DNA from: a virus | IMG/VR virus record: IMGVR_UViG_3300036820_000006 | Coordinates: 35,276-99,275 of that record | DNA length: 64,000 nt | Reading direction: 5' to 3' (one strand) | Part shown: positions 12,419 to 49,230 of the stretch, piece by piece | Position numbering within the stretch: the stretch's first letter is position 1 | Layout: each line of letters starts with the position of its first letter | The notes under the pieces: model-generated | What the model was told of the DNA's origin: nothing | The model's database searches: none | The model's input: the letters and a program-made list of their open reading frames with translations, nothing else | Program-made: the position numbers and the translations under genes

Positions 12419-12778
12419 TCACCTTCTTTCCCGATGAGACTTTCTGGCGTTCAAGTGTTGCGCGCAGAAATCGCGACGGGATGCGAAGATGAACGAATCC
12501 GTCCTTGAAAGAGTTGTGACCCACCTCGGTCGGCAGTCCATGCGTGCGCACAACACCTTCATGCCGAGCCTGCCCGCTGCCAGCGTGAGCGCGTTCTTGA
12601 TGCTCATGGGCGGAATGAAAACTTCCTTGGTCTGAGGATCATAATGCAAATGCTCACGCCATGTGCGCTTGCGATAAGCATCGTAAGATTCTTGGTCTTC
12701 CTTTTCGGTTTCGTGGTAACGAGACTGCGAATAAGGTGATACTCCTTCAAGCTCGACGGTTGCGATGCGAACGGACAT
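12419..12778 (-). pseudogene. RAMP/Cas7-like protein, 3'-truncated after about residue 75 (candidate guide-RNA-binding effector)
   Basis: VELEGVSPYSQS first strand and VFIPPMSIKNAL..AA resemble the RAMP P.IP.SS.KG.LR signature. There is no C-terminal Gly-rich loop. After GMKV the sequence looks like the 3' end of another gene in a different frame. Confidence 0.55.
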
Positions 12779-12815
12779 TGAAATTCTCCCTTGGATTTGA
12801 GTTTGAGTTATGAAA

Positions 12816-12995
12816 ACGTTACGTTACATTACATCAAGCAGCGCGAAGTTGAGACACGATGCAGCACGCAGCAGAACGTTACAGGACGCAACGTAGCGCT
12901 GCACTGTGATGCCCCATGACGCGTTGCGAAACGACGCCCAACAGCACAGAATGCTGCGACATGCGGCGTTACGTAGCGACACGGAACGTTACGCA
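12816..12995 (-). ncRNA. Pentamer array A: 36 x (NN-CGY), putative gapped guide RNA
   Basis: On +, 36 in-phase units. Triplets: RCG 19, RCA 8, RTG 4, RAG 3, RCC 2. The last two bases vary. Confidence 0.85.
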
Positions 12996-13009
12996 ATCTC
13001 TAGCAAGCT

Positions 13010-13516
13010 TTACTCTTGAATGGCCTTGGACCCGAAAAGTTTCAGTGTCTCATCCATCGGCAGTGGACGAGTACGATTGCCAACCGCATCAGCGATCACC
13101 TTCTGCGTGCGCTCAGTAGCGCCCTTCTGGATGAACTGCAGAATCGTCAGCGAGGTATTGTGTTGCAGCTTTGACTGTGCGCTGAGCGAGTCGTAATCGA
13201 CTGCCTGCAACCGGCGCGATGCACGCTTGGCTGCCTTGCTGAGCTTGCGCAAGTCCGCAGTGCTTAGACTGGGAACTTCTTCATTGGGCACTAGCCGTAC
13301 GCCTCGGCCCCAGTCCACCACAAACACCATGCCTTGTTCACTGAGCAGCTTATTAGTTGATGTGGTAAGGACGTTGCGTCGATGCCGCACATCACACCCA
13401 CACAGGGCGTTCAGCTCGGTATACGTTACGGTCTCTCCCGGTTTGGCCTCGGCAAGCCGACGCAGAGCGATAGTAGTCTCAACCGCGAGATTACCCTTGA
13501 TTGGAATATACGGCAT
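13010..13516 (-). CDS. Accessory protein with a winged-helix-like N-terminus, flanked by arrays A and B
   Basis: 168 aa with GGGAG SD. PGETVTYTELNALCG...VFVVDWGRGVRL gives a wHTH-like pattern. Confidence 0.65.
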   Translation of the reverse strand: MPYIPIKGNLAVETTIALRRLAEAKPGETVTYTELNALCGCDVRHRRNVLTTSTNKLLSEQGMVFVVDWGRGVRLVPNEEVPSLSTADLRKLSKAAKRASRRLQAVDYDSLSAQSKLQHNTSLTILQFIQKGATERTQKVIADAVGNRTRPLPMDETLKLFGSKAIQE

Positions 13517-13546
13517 TCAGAATCTCCCTTTCTGATGATGCCAGTA

Positions 13547-13646
13547 ACAGTTCGGTACGGTACGTCACGTGACATGAAGGTGCGTTACGGGACATCACCT
13601 CACGGGACGGGACGATGCGGCGCGTAACAAAAAGATATGCAACATT
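13547..13646 (-). ncRNA. Pentamer array B: 20 x (NN-CGY)
   Basis: acagt tcggt acggt acgtc acgtg acatg aaggt gcgtt... All triplets are within one mismatch of RCG. Confidence 0.8.
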
Positions 13647-13659
13647 CACGCCATCTACC

Positions 13660-13689
13660 GTTATACACATATAGCCACGAATCTGTCAA
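13660..13689 (-). promoter_or_regulatory. Sigma70-type promoter for the array B / accessory gene / array A / RAMP-like operon
   Basis: TTGACA-18 bp-TATAAC with an extended -10 TG, on the minus strand. Confidence 0.75.
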
Positions 13690-13716
13690 CATATATGTGT
13701 GTACCAAATCGATGCT

Positions 13717-16700
13717 CTAAAATTTGACCTCCTGCAGCTCCGCCATGTTCGGCCCGCAGGCACATTCAATGCCCACTACCAGACCCTCTGGAGCGAGCTG
13801 TGGATGCACCAGCACATTACTCGGCCTACCGAACACGTCGCTGATATCATGCAACATCTGCGCACGCAAGCCTACTGGATAACAGAGCAGAATGCTGTCG
13901 TGAATCGTGTTGCACAGGCCGTAGCGCTCAGCCAACCCTTCACGATCTAGCGCTTTCAACCGCTCACGCAGGTCGCCGTGCGCCTCGCTCTGCACTCTGA
14001 ATGCCATGGCGGCGTTGAACTGCTCGCCAGGTTTCCAGCTGCCTTTACCATCGGGCACGTAGACCTCGTAAAACCATCGCAACATTCCGTAGCGGTTCTT
14101 TAGCATGCCCTGCCGGTGCGCCTCTTCGCACACGTTGCGCTGCCATACGAACACCTTTGGGAACAGACGCTCAATAACAGTGCGGAACTCTCTAGCCTGC
14201 TTCAATGAGGCGAAATGTTCACGGTTCATTTCGTAAAGATGTGGCGGCATCAACCCCAACGCAATGCCAAGAATACTCGGCTTGGCCTGCCGGTCACGCA
14301 CGGCTTTATAACGCTCATTGGACCTGAACCAGCGAAAGCGATCCATCAGCTCGTCGTCAGGTAGCGCGAACAGCTTATCCGCATCCGGCAGGCGCAGAAA
14401 GTTCCACGCCACAAAGCTGTGCATGTCCAGCCGTGCCATACGGCAGTTATGTGACAAGAATCCCTCCGCGATAAATGTTTTAGTACTCGTACCTAGTGCC
14501 ACGACAGGATGATTTCCTATAGACTCAATTTTCAAAATCTTGGCGTCATGCGCAAGTTTTCCAAACACGTTCATGCCTTCTAGCCTAGACAAGCACTTAG
14601 GTAATAATCGCTTTGGTCTAAATTGCCCCAGCGCACGTATACCCGCGAATGGCTGCCCCACAAACCTAAATGTACGGCAATCTCGTTGGGGATTGTTAGC
14701 ACTGTCCCCAAGGCTATAACCATATTTAGCTAACATACTTGCTACCGAGTCCGCGATAATCCCAGGTCTCTGTGCGAAACTTAGCTGGCACCCATTACTA
14801 AGGGACCCCTCCCCATCCAAAATTCCGGCAATATATCCTTGATCCCATAGATCAGCACTCTTCCATGGCGGGGTAAACGTGCTCAAGTACATACCCGTAG
14901 CTAATTCATCAGCCCTGCGCCAGCTTACTCGTTGCTTAGTATCAAACTTAGCTAGCCATGTGTGTTCTATGCTGCATGTAACAACGCCTTGGTCAGTGGT
15001 AATGCGCACACACGGACGTTCAATATAATCCACGGACTCAATTACGGATTTACGTAGCTTGCGTTTGCCCTCTATCGGAAACTCATCGAATCCCCAAAGT
15101 ACCTCTCCCTCTCGCAGGTCTATGGCACGTCTCCATTGCAGGTCGGCCGTCAGAATACGAGTATCTGGGGCCACACAATAAGACTCATCTTCAGCTAAGA
15201 ACCCTGTAATAAGGACATGATAACTTTTCAAATCCCAGTTCGCCAGCTCATACCCCGCTGGCGCTTCGATCATACTTTTTATAGCCTTACCCAACTTACC
15301 GTGGGCAGGGTAAGTTTGCGTAGATGGATTGCGCGCACTTAGCTGTCCAGTCGCGGGCGCGAAGGTAAAAGTGGTGTGTACTCGGCCGTCGGCGTGCGGT
15401 TTGAACCCGTCAACATAAGTGCTCGACATCTTTCCCATCTCACGGCATTCAATCACCTTCGTATAAAAGTCATCCTTGTGCCTAACTGCGAGACGTTCTA
15501 GCTCTTTTTTGTTGGTGGTGTCACTGCCTTTCTTGCGATCTTTGGGAATCTTATGCCCACGCACCCGCATATAATTCATCAGTTGCGGCGATGAGTTTGG
15601 TGAGAATTCATACACACGGCACCAGCGTGCAACCCCGGCAGTCTGTGTGCCAAGCTGCTCATCAAATACCTGCTGGCCAAACTGGCGCACATCAAAATAG
15701 AAGCGCTCACCCGGTTCCTCGACGCCATCTTCATCCGTGGTCGGCGGGTCCTCGAACATGCGCGCGCGGATCACCGCTATCTCGTCGGCAGTTACATTGC
15801 TATAACGATTAAGGTAAGCATTCTTGGCGGACTCGGTTAGCGCTTTCTTTGTCTGCTTGCCTTCCACCACCGGAATCCGAGTCGGCGTGATCTCTTCTAG
15901 CAGCTCTTTGACGCGAGGGGGCACTCCGGCATAACCATCCTTCGGCGTGATCTTTCTGGCGTCGGCGGGGAACCTGGCATCCAGCTCTAGCAGCAGCTCC
16001 GCACGCGTAGCATCAAACTGCGCGCCTAGCGCCAGCCTACGCTCATTATTAATCGGCAGGCCCCGCTGCTCCATTTTGGCTAGAATTGGCCGCACTGCTT
16101 CGACTTGGTTCTCATAGCCGACAGCGGCGCGCGCAGGCTGCGGGTCATACCATATCCCGCGATCTACCATAGTGCGGTACGAGACTGAATGAATACGCTG
16201 TGTCGCGTCCACGTCTACGCAGCCGTAGAACTCCAGATTGGTGCCGTTCAAATGCTTCCAGGGGAACGGGAACTGCGCATAGCTAGCAGCGAACTGCAGA
16301 TGCGCGGGCAAATCCGGCTGCATAAAGTGGAACTGTTGTAAGGTATCGTGTACCGGCCCGGCAAGTTCGAGATAGGTGGCATTGCCGAAATCGCGCTGGC
16401 CGACCGCGCGCAGAACTTTCAAATCGAATAAATTGTAATTATGCCCCAGCTTCGGCAGCGGCAGTTTCAGCAGCCATCTTGTCGCTTGAATAAAAGGCTG
16501 CTTCCACGGCATCGCAATAGCTTGGCCTGGCGCGACGCTGAACTGACTTAGCCTAATCTGCGTATCGGTGAATCCATCCGTTGCGTCTTCATCTAGCGAT
16601 GCCGATTCAAAAGTTTCGATATCGTGTGCCAGCGCGGTTAGTACGTGCTCAGCGGTACCGGGAATGCTGGCCAGCCACGCATCTGAACGCGCTTTTACAT

Positions 16701-17418
16701 CGCGGCAGAAATCGTCCAACTGAATAAGTGTTGGATGCAAGGTGTAATTTAGGTGGTTCTGTTGCAGCCACGCTGCTACTGCTTCAGCATCGTTATCCTG
16801 CAGCATGTCCAGAATAAAACTTTTATCTTTACCGTAACGCACGTTGACCGCGCGTTGAATATCTCGCGCCAGCACGCCGGTGAGATGAATCGCGCCTCGG
16901 CGCAGGAAACTAGGATGATATGTAGGCACCACCAGAAGTTCGCAGCCTGCTGCTTCGCAGAACTCTGGCAGCGCGCGAAACACATAACCGCGCATATGGC
17001 TAATAGTGCGCTTTTCGCCCGAGATGCCCGTCAAAGTGCGGAACGGAATGCCGCCAAGCGCCACTACAGTGCGCGGCTTGAACTTGCGAAAGAATTCCAA
17101 TAGATTAGGCTGGCACTGATTGATGACGGAGAACTCATAGTTAGTTCCAGCTAGCGCGTTCCCAAATGGTCTGCAGCGCAACGTATTCGAGATTGCGAAC
17201 TGGTCGCGGGAGAATCCCAGCCGACGCAGCGTGCGCTCTAAGACAGCTCCAGCTGGTGCGTATTTGACAAAAGGAGTTAGTTCACGCGCCTCGTTTTCTC
17301 CGCTGGCCTCGCCAATGAGAGCAACGCCTAAGCTGCAGCTTCCTTCTGGCTGGGAGAAGTCAGTGCCAGCATTGTATAGATAGCAATTTCTACAGCTATC
17401 TGGCTTACTCCTGACCAC
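13717..17418 (-). CDS. polA: Family A DNA polymerase with N-terminal uracil-DNA glycosylase-like domain, 3'-5' exonuclease and intein
   Basis: UDG motifs IGEASG, NTLRCRP, PTYHPS. Exonuclease motifs HDIET, GHNYNLFD, YGCVD. Polymerase motifs TGQLSARNP, motif A WDLKS, motif B RQAK and motif C IHDS. Confidence 0.92.
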   Translation of the reverse strand: MVRSKPDSCRNCYLYNAGTDFSQPEGSCSLGVALIGEASGENEARELTPFVKYAPAGAVLERTLRRLGFSRDQFAISNTLRCRPFGNALAGTNYEFSVINQCQPNLLEFFRKFKPRTVVALGGIPFRTLTGISGEKRTISHMRGYVFRALPEFCEAAGCELLVVPTYHPSFLRRGAIHLTGVLARDIQRAVNVRYGKDKSFILDMLQDNDAEAVAAWLQQNHLNYTLHPTLIQLDDFCRDVKARSDAWLASIPGTAEHVLTALAHDIETFESASLDEDATDGFTDTQIRLSQFSVAPGQAIAMPWKQPFIQATRWLLKLPLPKLGHNYNLFDLKVLRAVGQRDFGNATYLELAGPVHDTLQQFHFMQPDLPAHLQFAASYAQFPFPWKHLNGTNLEFYGCVDVDATQRIHSVSYRTMVDRGIWYDPQPARAAVGYENQVEAVRPILAKMEQRGLPINNERRLALGAQFDATRAELLLELDARFPADARKITPKDGYAGVPPRVKELLEEITPTRIPVVEGKQTKKALTESAKNAYLNRYSNVTADEIAVIRARMFEDPPTTDEDGVEEPGERFYFDVRQFGQQVFDEQLGTQTAGVARWCRVYEFSPNSSPQLMNYMRVRGHKIPKDRKKGSDTTNKKELERLAVRHKDDFYTKVIECREMGKMSSTYVDGFKPHADGRVHTTFTFAPATGQLSARNPSTQTYPAHGKLGKAIKSMIEAPAGYELANWDLKSYHVLITGFLAEDESYCVAPDTRILTADLQWRRAIDLREGEVLWGFDEFPIEGKRKLRKSVIESVDYIERPCVRITTDQGVVTCSIEHTWLAKFDTKQRVSWRRADELATGMYLSTFTPPWKSADLWDQGYIAGILDGEGSLSNGCQLSFAQRPGIIADSVASMLAKYGYSLGDSANNPQRDCRTFRFVGQPFAGIRALGQFRPKRLLPKCLSRLEGMNVFGKLAHDAKILKIESIGNHPVVALGTSTKTFIAEGFLSHNCRMARLDMHSFVAWNFLRLPDADKLFALPDDELMDRFRWFRSNERYKAVRDRQAKPSILGIALGLMPPHLYEMNREHFASLKQAREFRTVIERLFPKVFVWQRNVCEEAHRQGMLKNRYGMLRWFYEVYVPDGKGSWKPGEQFNAAMAFRVQSEAHGDLRERLKALDREGLAERYGLCNTIHDSILLCYPVGLRAQMLHDISDVFGRPSNVLVHPQLAPEGLVVGIECACGPNMAELQEVKF
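14446..15177 (-). mobile_element. Intein (244 aa) with a LAGLIDADG motif inside the polymerase
   Basis: Starts CVAPDTRILT, contains YIAGILDGEG and ends FIAEGFLSHN before an extein Cys. The segment has lower GC. Confidence 0.92.
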
Positions 17419-19564: not shown

Positions 19565-19637
19565 TGCGAACCGAGGGGATCGAACCCTCGACATCACGAT
19601 TACAATTCGTGCGCTCTATCCACTGAGCTAGGTTCAA
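19565..19637 (-). tRNA. tRNA-Thr(UGU), slightly atypical
   Basis: D arm GCTCAGTGGATAGAGC, anticodon stem CACGA/TCGTG with loop ATTGTAA, T arm GAGGG-TTCGATC-CCCTC. 1:72 mismatch and no encoded CCA. Confidence 0.75.
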
Positions 19638-20039: not shown

Positions 20040-20115
20040 TGGTTGCGGGGGCTGGACTTGAACCAGCGACCTTGTGGTTATGAGCCACCTGTTCTACCAA
20101 CTGAACTACCCCGCC
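20040..20115 (-). tRNA. tRNA with CAU anticodon (Met type)
   Basis: Full 76-nt cloverleaf, loop CTCATAA, encoded CCA, 1:72 mismatch. Confidence 0.9.
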
Positions 20116-21515: not shown

Positions 21516-21726
21516 GATCATTATCGCTGCTTAGATTGTTCTGGCTGAGAAGGGGCACCCACTCAGCCAGATTTGGAGGGACGATACGCGGTTAGCCAAG
21601 CTGTGGGTAAGGGCGGCTCACAGCTTTTGCTCGTACTCGCGTTCGTCCCATGACGAGTAGAAGGTGTGTAGGGGGAGAGCACCGAGAACTTAGAAAATAA
21701 CTAAGCGCTCTCCTCCAAGTTTGGAA

Positions 21727-21801
21727 CCGTTACGCTACGAAACTATGCGGGACTGTAAGATATGGGACAATGCGCCACGTCGAGTTACGCGGCGGCACGA
21801 T
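21727..21801 (-). ncRNA. Pentamer array C: 15 x (NN-CGY)
   Basis: ccgtt acgct acgaa actat gcggg actgt aagat atggg acaat gcgcc acgtc gagtt acgcg gcggc acgat. Begins 2 bp after the upstream stop codon. Confidence 0.8.
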
Positions 21802-21803
21802 AG

Positions 21804-22559
21804 TTACTTCTTCGGAAAATATCCGACGACGACAGCCTGCGCCCGCATCGCAACGTCACCGAGCTTGCCCGGCACTGTGATTTCCGGCACGCGCTTACCG
21901 TCACGTTCTGGAAACCGGTGCATCCCTTTCACGCGCTTCGGCAAACGCTCGCCGCGCTCTTTGTAAAGTTCCACAGTGTCCTGATCGGGCTGACCTTCCC
22001 ATGAAGTTTCGATTTCGAGCGTGGGCTCGCTGGCCAGCGTCTTCTGGAACAATTCTTTCAACTGACCCGCACTCATATTGCTAGGCACCTTCACGCCGAG
22101 GCATTGCAGAATTCTGACCATCGCAATTCCGCCATTTCTCGCCGTCCGGCTATCGACGAAGCGATCAAAAACCGGAATATTATCGAACTTCCCACTGGGG
22201 TCCTGAATGCGGCACTCCAGCGCCGTGCTCACATACAGCTTCGGCTTACCATTCGCCAGAAAAACAGGCTTTCCCGGCGCGCCCTTGCTGTAGTCCATGT
22301 CCTGCTTCACGGCGAACAGCACTTCCTTGCCGTCAGCATCCTTGACGTTCAACTGTTTTAGCTTGGCAGTGTAACGGCCATCCGGCACGGGCGGCGGGAA
22401 CTCGTATGGGTTGGCGCTGGCATCGAACTCCAGCGATTCTTCCAGCAGCGAGGGATCGTTCAGGTCCACTGACACGATTTGTTGGTCATCGGCGGCGCTG
22501 TCAGTGGACACACTACCAGCGGTCTCGTCGGCGTAGATAGGTTGAGCGAAATCAGTCAT
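21804..22559 (-). CDS. Putative ssDNA-binding protein
   Basis: PVPDGRYTAKL beta-rich pattern, located downstream of the AAA_24-like ATPase as in Sak4-type modules. Confidence 0.45.
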   Translation of the reverse strand: MTDFAQPIYADETAGSVSTDSAADDQQIVSVDLNDPSLLEESLEFDASANPYEFPPPVPDGRYTAKLKQLNVKDADGKEVLFAVKQDMDYSKGAPGKPVFLANGKPKLYVSTALECRIQDPSGKFDNIPVFDRFVDSRTARNGGIAMVRILQCLGVKVPSNMSAGQLKELFQKTLASEPTLEIETSWEGQPDQDTVELYKERGERLPKRVKGMHRFPERDGKRVPEITVPGKLGDVAMRAQAVVVGYFPKK

Positions 22560-32001: not shown

Positions 32002-35000
32002 TCAGTTCGCCTGCGCTCGTTCCTCTCCCTCCCTCTTATCCATATCAGCAATCTCCTTAGCAGTCGCAGGCCGCGCCTGCACAAACGGTAGATGCATAAA
32101 TTTCTCCATGAATTCCTCTTGTGTGCCTTCATTCAGCACTTCAGTAAGAGGGCCATCCGCGCCCACGCCGAGCAAGCTATTGGCTACTCTACGTATCAAT
32201 GCAATCACATGCTCGCGCGTGCTGTGGACGGTCATGGTGTACCAGTTCTTTTCGTCTTTAGAATCGAAGAATTTGTCATCCTTGTGGTAACGGAAGCGAT
32301 AGTCGAGTTGGTAGAGCCTGCCGGGTTCAAGCTCAGTAGCGGCGGCCAGCCAGTCTTGTTTGGGTTGGATTGGCATGAACCAGATGCCGATTGTTTGCTC
32401 GGTCATGGTTATCATTGCTGTGGCTCCTTTGTGGAAACTGGAAGTTGGCTATGCAGTAGCAACACAGCCCTCATAATGCGTTGTAGCGTGCGACGCAGGT
32501 CGTCTGGCAAGGTGGCTAAGTCCACAGGCGCGAGTTTATGCTTCTTGTCGAATTGCAGAGGAGTCGCGCATTCAATGCCAAACGGTACAGTCGCCCGGCT
32601 TGGGACCGGAGGTAGATTCTAGTGGGTCCGCATTAGAGGCCGCGTCGAGCTTATGCCCACAGTTCGGGCAGAGTTGCAGCTTGAGTTTATGAGTTGACAT
32701 CTGGTTCTCCCCTTCACGTTATCCCTCATGTGGAATAGTTATATTCGTGGCTGCTACTGCCATGCCCGCCGCCGCCGTGCTCGGCGCTATTCAACAGCGC
32801 CGCAATACCAAACAGCAGCGCCAGCACCAAGCCAAGCGCCAGCAATGGCTTGCATATTCCCCATAGCCACAGCGGCAGGCTAGATTCTTCGCGCAGGAAT
32901 TGCTTCAGCGCCTGCTCGCGATTGATCTGGTCATGGTGGGTCATGCGGAAGCCTCCTTGCGCGGCTTGTAGCCCGCCATCTCATACGCACGCTGCTTTGT
33001 CCAGCAGTACGAATTGCTTCGGGCGCTCGTCTTCAGGATCAGTGAACACGGCGAACTCGTCCGCGTCGTAAGCGAGCGCGGCAGCTTCGAACGCGCCGTT
33101 ATCGACAATGCAGATAAGCGCTTTGTCGGCGGGGATATCGTTGAAAGATTCTGGCTGCGCGATTAGCTTGCCGTTGTGCCGCGTTGCGATAATGCGCGCT
33201 TTATCGTGGTCGCTGCCGGGGGTTTGAATGTAGTATCCCACAAGGGTTTATCTCCTTTTTTGGATTGCGATGCGATGCGATGCGTTACGCGGCGCTGCGA
33301 TGCGATGCGATGCGCTATGACAAGAAGCGACACAGTATGAAACGGTACTAAGCGCTACGTAGCCGCACGCTAAGGTTATGAAGAAGTTGAAGTTTTGGCT
33401 TTCTGAACTTTTTGAGCGAGCTTGCTGGCATCGAACCCTAGCTCGAATGGCTGCTCGCGGGTGATTTTTTCCACGCGTATGAATTCGACTTGTTTCATCG
33501 CTACGATGCCGTAGTCACGTAAACGCTCCAGTATTTCGCGCTTAGTGGGAAGCTTGGCAAAGCGCCACGTCGCGGGATACCACCACGTAATTACGGATAC
33601 ATAATGCCCACTACGGCACTGGTTGTAACCCGCTTGAAAGCGTAGCTCATAAGTGACTTGGCAGCATTCGCGCGAGCCTGCAGTGGTGTTGGTAGATGGC
33701 ATAGTGCCGTGCGCCTCCTTAGTTCCGCCTTAGTTCATCTTGCTCAAATCGGTTTCCTTGCCTACTGGAATCAGTGTTGCGCGGCCATGCTTGGAATCGA
33801 CTGAAATTGGCCCGCGCTGGCCGGTTGCGGCGGCTTTGATGGCGGCGGTAATGCTCGCGCCGATCTCGTCAGCATGTTCGGCCAAGTCGCGCATGTTCGC
33901 GCCGCCGAAGCTAATGCTGCCTTGGCCCAAGCTATCAATGACGGTGAAGTCGGCGTCTATGGCAGCCGTAGCCGTAGCATCAGCGGCATCAGCGGCAGCA
34001 GAGTCAGTAGCACTAGCACCGCCCTCAGCGACCGCCCGCATCAGCTTATCAAGCGAGCGCTCCACTGAGCGTTCCACCCCCGCACCTCCACGAATTTGAT
34101 TGCCAGCCGCTGCCGCAGTCCACAGCGCATTCGCGCCGCCGCCGATGAATGTGTTGCGCAGCAAGGAAATCATAATGAGCATGTGCTCATCCGGGTCCGG
34201 CGTACTGCCAGCAGCTATAAGTGCGGCATCCGCAGCGCTCTGTGCGTTGATGGCTTTGTCCAGCTCGAATAGCATCTGCTTGATAAAAGCATCCATGCCG
34301 CGCTTAGCCAGCTCAGCAATGCGTTTGATTTCCGCGCCTGTGGCTTCATCGCTGACTTCTTCGTCTTTCTTGGGAATGTACATGATGAATGTGTACCCCT
34401 TCTGTATGAGTGCAAGTGCGAGTGAGTGACCGGTGGAGTGACCGGTGGAGTAGTGACTAAGCTAAAATTTATCTTGCTTGGTGAAGCCCGGCGAGATGCG
34501 CGGCTTTTCAACTTTGGTAGCTTGGAGCGCCGCGTAGTGTGCAATAGTGTCTACGCAGATGGCGATGATAAGGTCGCCGTCTGTGTCATAGAACTCCAGA
34601 AAACGGAACTTTTGCTGAGGCTGACCTGAGCAGCCTTGAACAACCGTGGTCGATCCGTCCGTGTGCGCGACGGTAAATGCGAATGTCAGTTGCGTGTAGG
34701 TGTAGGTGGTGTTCATTGCGTTGCGCCCTCCCTTGGCGCATGACCTTTTTTGTTGGCTAGGCGATCTCAAACCGTCCGATAAACTTCTCGCATTCTGCGC
34801 ACGAGATGTATAAAGCGCCTTTATAGAAGGCAGTCTGCGTTGCCGCCTCAGGATGACAGCGCGCGGTAAGGTAACATAGGCCCACTGTCGTGCTTGTGAT
34901 CGCAGTTAGGTGCGGCACAACCCATCCCGGCTAGGGTGTGCGCGCTGGTAGCATGTTTATCTCTGGCCCATGCAGTGTAGTCGATCATTTTTTGGCCTTT

Positions 35001-49110: not shown

Positions 49111-49230
49111 TTCGTCCCGCATCGTTACTTGTTGTTGCGTTCCGTACCGCTCCGTATCGTAACGTCATGTTCCGTTCCATACTGTTCCGTATCGTGTCTC
49201 ATCGCATCGCGCCGCGCCGCATTGTAAAGT
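49111..49230 (+). ncRNA. Pentamer array E: 24 x (NN-CGY), on the + strand
   Basis: ttcgt cccgc atcgt tactt gttgt tgcgt tccgt accgc... All triplets are within one mismatch of CGY. Orientation follows local + transcription. Confidence 0.85.

Follow-up and report, generated by a model that had tools for sequence, protein, structure and literature searches.

A locus in the genome of a soil phage (IMG/VR record IMGVR_UViG_3300036820_000006) is, to judge from its sequence, derived from a Viral Interference Programmable Repeat (VIPR) system with a broken effector, and is not a complete system. The record is a 99,275-bp virus genome with direct terminal repeats, rated 100% complete, and we analyzed its final 64 kb (hereafter the window). 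All elements of the locus lie on the minus strand, 3′ of a gene for a family-A DNA polymerase: read leftward, they are a promoter-like site, an array of pentamers (A1), an open reading frame (ORF) of 168 aa, a second array (A2) and an ORF of 119 aa. An earlier annotation made from the letters alone (hereafter the original prediction) had proposed this leftward layout, with a promoter-like site, two arrays, a 168-aa gene and a RAMP-like gene, and every element was found in its place. We assign the arrays, the 168-aa ORF (vap) and the 5′ part of the 119-aa ORF (a vipr remnant), with a probability of about 0.85, to a phage VIPR locus of a subfamily with a C/Y-G-Y triplet.

VIPR was first described in 2026. 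Its parts are a RAMP protein of ~20 kDa named Vipr, usually an accessory protein, Vap, which binds DNA in types II, VI and VII, and guide RNAs (vrRNAs) composed of YNNGG pentamers, in tandem arrays of 9-16 units or longer. On each repeat a single Vipr protomer sequesters GGY, and the NN dinucleotide pairs with DNA, skipping one base, typically the codon wobble. The system of Escherichia phage SUSP1 has been proven experimentally, and the discovery paper also mentions variant arrays of the forms YNNNG, NNNGG and NNNNG (10.64898/2026.04.26.720920). Arrays of GAC/NN, CAC/NN, WGT/NN and TGH/NN have been reported beside Vipr-like folds (10.64898/2026.10.21.760802), and VIPR-null phages, which have lost vipr and vap1, as well as satellites carry solo vrRNAs that redirect a foreign Vipr (10.64898/2026.10.15.759431).

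Both arrays of the locus are built of pentamers with three fixed and two free bases. Array A1 (13542..13636, minus strand) consists of 19 phased NN-CGY units, is vrRNA-like and ends in AC-AC-AC; its column logo reads C14/T4, G16, T14/C3, and NN-YGY fits 14 of 17 units. Array A2 (12821-13000, minus strand, plus an extra AACGT unit at 12816-12820) comprises 36-37 units in a single unbroken phase, with a logo over 36 units of C25/T8, G28, Y36 and free columns 1-2. The first triplet base is C in 14/19 units of A1 and in 25/36 of A2, that is, the triplet is C/Y-G-Y and not GGY. We divide A2 into A2a (12906..13000, minus strand), the 5′ 19 units, and A2b (12816..12905, minus strand), which holds 14 guide units (12836-12905) followed by the terminal units GA-AA-AA(-AA). 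Runs of NN-YGY extend to 14 units in A1 and to 12 and 10 units in A2, as compared with a mean longest run of 6 units and a maximum of 8 in 30 random Markov-1 windows of 64 kb. The predicted sizes of ~20 and 36 units in exact 5-nt phase agree with the 19-21 (A1) and 36-37 (A2) units counted here. The arrays had also been said not to be clustered regularly interspaced short palindromic repeat (CRISPR) repeat-spacer arrays, and we indeed found no CRISPR-type repeats; Rfam finds only two tRNAs, and neither Pfam nor PHROGs places any neighboring ORF in a Cas family. At the arrays themselves, Rfam detected neither hammerhead ribozymes nor other RNA families, and RNA folding revealed no stable or shared structure (z −0.7 to +2.6), A1 being unstructured as RNA (z +1.0).

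One guide, that of A2b, can be decoded. Its 14 dinucleotides (12836-12905), when reverse-complemented and spaced with a one-base skip, spell QRFTIAHELGHYLL, which reads as Q-R-F-T-I-A-H-E-L-G-H-Y-L-L. A search of 596 Gb of bacterial genomes returned 4 matches to the exact 28-base gapped pattern, against ~1.7e-5 expected by chance. In each of the four, the pattern falls in frame on codon positions 1-2 of RQRFTIAHE[F/L]GHYLLH, which contains an HEXXH motif. This correspondence shows, as far as sequence can, that the published one-base-skip code applies to a guide of the CGY type. A Pfam scan of two matched ORFs placed both in Peptidase_M78 (PF06114, IrrE/ImmA), and the predicted target class of A2b is thus the HEXXH active-site motif of ImmA/IrrE genes. 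Proteases of this kind are typical of the induction switches of prophages and mobile elements. The pattern points to A2b being aimed at proteases that govern the induction of rival prophages or mobile elements, in line with the targets of the Pseudomonas fulva VIPR (10.64898/2026.04.26.720920). The ImmA pattern of A2b had no exact match in IMG/VR, and no PF06114 gene was found in the phage genome. Self-targeting and the targeting of rival VIPR systems by the guides were considered and discarded, neither being above shuffled controls. The original prediction had proposed a discontinuous guide, in which each subunit binds one CGY and presents NN for pairing; the pentamers of three fixed and two free bases and the decoding of A2b into a gene motif bear out the guide, whereas the binding of CGY by a protomer is carried over from homologous VIPR systems.

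The 119-aa ORF was identified as Vipr-derived through its family. Residues 1-75 match the family hidden Markov model (HMM) with an E-value of 2e-26, at positions 2-72 of 188 only. The vipr remnant (12551..12778, minus strand) spans codons 1-76 of a Vipr-family RAMP gene, encoding strand b1, an insert helix and helix-1, and is followed by a tail (12419..12550, minus strand) of 43 codons without homology, whose stop overlaps the ATG of the next gene (ATGA). What is retained amounts to ~75 of ~190 residues (38% of the length); the thumb, the G-loop and two-thirds of the RRM are gone. The missing C-terminal part (thumb and G-loop) was sought in every frame of the window and of the whole 99-kb genome and was not found, which also rules out a frameshifted vipr. 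A second, divergent Vipr elsewhere in the genome is excluded by a phmmer search with the SUSP1 protein and a scan for the G-loop motif, neither of which gave a match, and a deletion-fusion to a known gene was discarded, neither the post-junction peptide nor its alternative frame having relatives. With the thumb and G-loop missing from vipr, and no other copy present, the locus is unable to load guides of its own or to act alone.

The sole close relative of the truncated protein, P0001 (CAM6006561.1), is 75% identical to the ORF, over residues 1-75 only. It comes from a fused gene model of eukaryotic style, on a contig of 40 kb in the ‘Sphagnum balticum’ moss assembly, Vipr-like in residues 1-~120 and belonging to a different phage protein family in residues 122-206; the contig is probably phage or bacterial contamination of the moss assembly. 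An exhaustive HMMER search with P0001 retrieved 912 representative clusters, mostly of proteins of 185-200 aa. A profile of 30 family members aligned by hhalign to SUSP1 Vipr (reference sequence taken from NC_028808.2) with a probability of 97.8% and an E-value of 7e-13 over 153 columns, including the thumb region and the G-loop. The structure of a full-length family member was modeled with a predicted local distance difference test (pLDDT) score of 92.5, and its top matches in the PDB are all Cas7, Csm3 or Cas7-11 proteins (E ~1e-8, template-modeling score ~0.6). By these sequence comparisons and this model, the family of the 119-aa ORF is Vipr, with a Cas7/Csm3-type RAMP fold in the full-length member. 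The fold comparison proposed earlier, made here with the full-length member, had the anticipated outcome, and the description of the gene as RAMP/Cas7-like holds for family and fold; it does not hold for an effector, the gene being a 5′ remnant without thumb and G-loop. Other searches were empty: Pfam and PHROGs scans of both ORFs and their neighbors returned nothing useful, neither protein had a tblastn match among 50,697 curated phage records, a nucleotide search of the locus against the curated phage set returned no more than 60 bp from an unrelated gene, and a sequence search of the PDB, in a release older than any Vipr structure, found no match. Short proteins also occur elsewhere in the family. 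One of 119 aa (P0024) is a natural mini-Vipr in which the N-terminal part is joined straight to the G-loop and the thumb region is skipped; other short members, of 128-148 aa, may be contig-end fragments.

The 168-aa ORF (13010..13516, minus strand) is, on the basis of homology and a structural model, the Vap of this VIPR subfamily, an accessory protein with a winged-helix N-terminal domain and a helical bundle. In BLASTP it matches SUSP1 Vap1 with an E-value of 1e-6, and hhalign of the Vap family profile against SUSP1 Vap1 gave 62.6% and an E-value of 7e-5. The model (pLDDT 93) displays an N-terminal winged-helix unit of H-b-H-H-b-b topology followed by the bundle, and its structural matches, weak to middling, are mostly winged-helix regulators, such as PurR (Z 7.3, root-mean-square deviation 2.5 Å over 67 residues). 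Both the topology and the homology to Vap1 agree with the winged-helix assignment made in the original prediction, and the resemblance to VIPR pointed out there proves to be real homology, of the family profile to SUSP1 Vipr and of Vap to Vap1.

We then examined 80 IMG/VR loci (L004-L083) with a full-length family member, recovered using the family subset that shares GKGKAT[YFW]T. Period-5 arrays adjoining the homologs, a check that had been suggested for this locus, are present directly beside vipr and on its sense strand in 80/80 loci. Vap homologs occur on the same strand in 58/80, usually just 3′ of vipr and occasionally 5′, as here. The triplet is lineage-specific: CGC/CGY is the commonest (~20/80 loci), followed by GGC, GAC, CAC, CTC, AGT and GTT. 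CGY is therefore ordinary within this Vipr subfamily, and the earlier idea that a CGY consensus would mark a different variant is not supported; non-GGY triplets have also been published. Among 109 distinct arrays, 47% close with two identical dinucleotides, as against 6-8% for other positions, and the final dinucleotide is mostly AA; A2, which ends in GA-AA-AA(-AA), carries this 3′ AA-AA mark of the family together with its polarity. These array ends suggest that repeated identical units take the place of the structured 3′ tail seen in SUSP1 vrRNAs. At the positions aligned to SUSP1 D177-R179, the G-loop reads ‘RFR’ in both CGC and GGC lineages, F/S/Y occurs in GAC lineages and ‘RWR’ in AGT lineages, a pattern in the aligned sequences that hints at a partial protein-RNA specificity code. 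No simple triplet code could be drawn from the G-loop, since the CGC and GGC lineages are not told apart by the residue aligned to D177.

The genome has three additional arrays, spread over 36 kb, all inside the window, in intergenic gaps and in the orientation of the flanking genes. Array C (21722-21806, minus strand) has 17 units and is more degenerate, with a logo of C13, G12, Y15; A3 (33267-33376, minus strand) has 22 units in one phase and ends in a low-complexity AT-AT-AT; and A4 (49111-49230, plus strand) has 24 units followed by a GC-rich hairpin, and is as RNA less structured than 200/200 shuffles (z +2.6). A search of the remaining 35 kb of the genome found no further arrays. The pattern is preserved in 20/23 units of A4 and in 31/36 of A2. 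These sequence features make us lean towards recent loss or continued use: all five arrays are well preserved, the guide in A2b is perfect and vap is intact.

Based on published VIPR work, we hypothesize that in an intact system of this kind the leftward transcript would carry vrRNAs of ~17-19 pentamers, on which Vipr would assemble with one protomer per pentamer, sequestering the CGY triplet and displaying the two free bases. The displayed dinucleotides would pair with DNA, skipping every third base and hence reading codon positions 1-2 of the target gene, and this triplex-type DNA binding would lead to transcriptional silencing of that gene, with the winged-helix protein Vap assisting.

Several observations weigh against the assignment to VIPR or limit how far it reaches. 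The expression and processing of the vrRNAs and their binding by Vipr would be carried over from the homologous system, by analogy. The promoter upstream of A1 (13660..13689, minus strand; TTGACA at 13684-13689, an 18-nt spacer and TATAAC at 13660-13665) is putative, being a consensus match read by eye, and was not called by a consensus promoter scanner, whose rule demands T at the final −10 position. A structured 3′ tail like that of SUSP1 was looked for at the arrays and not found. No exact natural match was obtained for A1, searched as 14 units and as its central 11 units, nor for the central 11 units of A2a among viral contigs; these empty searches double as an informal control for the A2b matches. 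The four ImmA matches themselves come from taxa unrelated to one another and reach no further than the 14 searched units, and they therefore give a target family and not the actual target. The nearest full-length relatives are only ~50% identical and have mixed triplets, a caution against taking the full-length ancestor of the remnant for a reader of CGY. In the published VIPR-null phages, a clean deletion of 1.1-1.4 kb removed vipr and vap1 together, unlike here, where an intact vap accompanies a 76-codon vipr stump. Finally, a relic and a locus used in trans are not separable from sequence.

That last point bears directly on the present state of the locus. A dead relic, in which a recent deletion took the 3′ two-thirds of vipr (perhaps with a downstream array) and left arrays and vap that have not yet decayed, comes close to an even chance in our estimate: the junction is without homology in any frame, the reading frame of the remnant goes on through 43 unrelated codons, and the truncated protein and Vap are both singletons among 15 billion proteins. 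Against a relic stand the good ribosome-binding site of the remnant, its stop overlapping the start of the next gene, and the slight decay of the arrays. Only a little less likely, in our estimate, is a continued use, in which the five arrays and Vap would reprogram a Vipr supplied by a prophage of the host, a satellite or a second infecting phage towards ImmA/IrrE genes and others. In its favor, the arrays have kept their pattern, all 14 units of the A2b guide are perfect, vap is full length with a confident fold, and published solo vrRNAs do redirect a foreign Vipr (10.64898/2026.10.15.759431). However, it would depend on a compatible, so far hypothetical CGY-reading Vipr in the host; one recent deletion accounts for the same picture, the published solo-vrRNA phages are without vap, and there is no sign of selection since the deletion. 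A long shot is that the 76-residue stump (b1 plus the RNA-binding helix-1) belongs to a parasitic module, in which Vap and the five guide arrays depend on the Vipr of resident elements, and serves as a cap or dominant-negative on filament assembly over rival guides, i.e., as a Vipr-derived anti-VIPR; the stump has its own ribosome-binding site and would be translationally coupled to the next gene.

The truncation could also have arisen in assembly or represent a minority variant, the real phage carrying an intact vipr and a working system, since the genome was assembled from a metagenome and misassembly is common where repeats abound. We consider this unlikely: the breakpoint lies in unique coding sequence, outside the arrays, the identical truncated 119-aa product is recorded from two assembly sources, JGI/IMG and Logan, and the genome closes with its terminal repeats and is rated complete. 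Finally, the period-5 tracts might be DNA-level elements, such as protein-binding iterons, curvature or recombination signals, and not guide RNAs, as they sit in intergenic gaps across the genome and their RNA nature is here carried over from homologs. This is highly improbable in view of the linkage of arrays to Vipr homologs in all 80 loci, the strand polarity with the 3′ AA-AA mark, the free dinucleotides that spell a protein motif in frame, and the experiments that have proven the homologous system of SUSP1 (10.64898/2026.04.26.720920).

Among known systems, the locus most resembles the type II VIPR of SUSP1 (NC_028808.2, 27.5-29.5 kb) and of a P. fulva prophage (10.64898/2026.04.26.720920; 10.64898/2026.04.26.720927). 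Like them, it is phage-borne and combines a Vipr RAMP with a Vap1-like winged-helix protein, has flanking arrays on the gene strand whose pentamers hold three fixed and two free bases, follows the one-base-skip reading of codon positions 1-2, and has predicted targets tied to the lysogeny or induction switches of rival elements. It differs from them in the triplet, C/Y-G-Y in place of GGY; in gene order, array-vap-array-vipr as against array-vipr-vap-arrays; in its array ends, which carry no pseudoknot tail and finish in repeated identical units (AA-AA); and in the cutting of vipr to 38% of its length and the three extra arrays dispersed over 36 kb. With the VIPR-null phages (10.64898/2026.10.15.759431) it shares arrays kept without a working vipr, some of them standing alone, and a possible ‘guns for hire’ use, but it belongs to a different Vipr subfamily with a different triplet, and its host group is probably also different, not Enterobacteriaceae. 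The published non-canonical VIPR arrays likewise have period 5 and a non-GGY triplet beside a Vipr-like fold, and the 80 relatives show a similar spread; the published VIPR papers compared do not mention CGY or CGC in their text, and their figures may show it. A further likeness links the locus to the class 1 CRISPR backbone subunits (Cas7/Csm3/Cas7-11), which share the RAMP fold of the full-length family member and likewise place a single protomer on each fixed period of the RNA, keeping periodic bases out of pairing. In class 1 CRISPR, however, the period is 6 with 1 base excluded, whereas here it is 5 with 3 excluded; the present locus has neither CRISPR spacers nor cas1/cas2 or any other cas gene, and its guide is hard-coded in a tandem repeat.

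Other features surround the locus. An inverted repeat with 12-nt arms that are 92% complementary (13662-13673 and 13692-13703) brackets the −35 box of the promoter-like site and overlaps its −10 box; it is a possible candidate operator, perhaps for the winged-helix Vap. Beyond it, a 1233-aa ORF (13717-17418, minus strand) encodes a uracil-DNA-glycosylase-superfamily domain fused to the family-A DNA polymerase, in which the Pol A match ends at residue 746, beside an insert of ~240 aa with intein-like junctions; Pfam called no intein domain in this ORF. No VIPR locus lies near the only relative of the polymerase (L088, 40% identity). The two tRNA genes called by Rfam lie on the minus strand at 19565-19637 and 20043-20115.

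Already published are the principle of VIPR, its protein family, triplets other than GGY and guide carriers lacking vipr, and this locus leaves the known principle unchanged; the new details are the CGY triplet, which the text of the papers compared does not name, the predicted ImmA/IrrE target class, the state of a vipr stump with an intact vap, and the AA-AA end mark. Nearly all VIPR experiments so far concern two GGY systems, in Enterobacteria and Pseudomonas, and in this unrelated 99-kb soil phage the one-base-skip code can be verified for a CGY-type guide from the sequence alone. The locus represents an intermediate state of decay between complete systems and the published VIPR-null phages with solo guides, and the survey of its family, with its triplets and AA-AA ends, provides a natural panel for how Vipr residues set triplet specificity.

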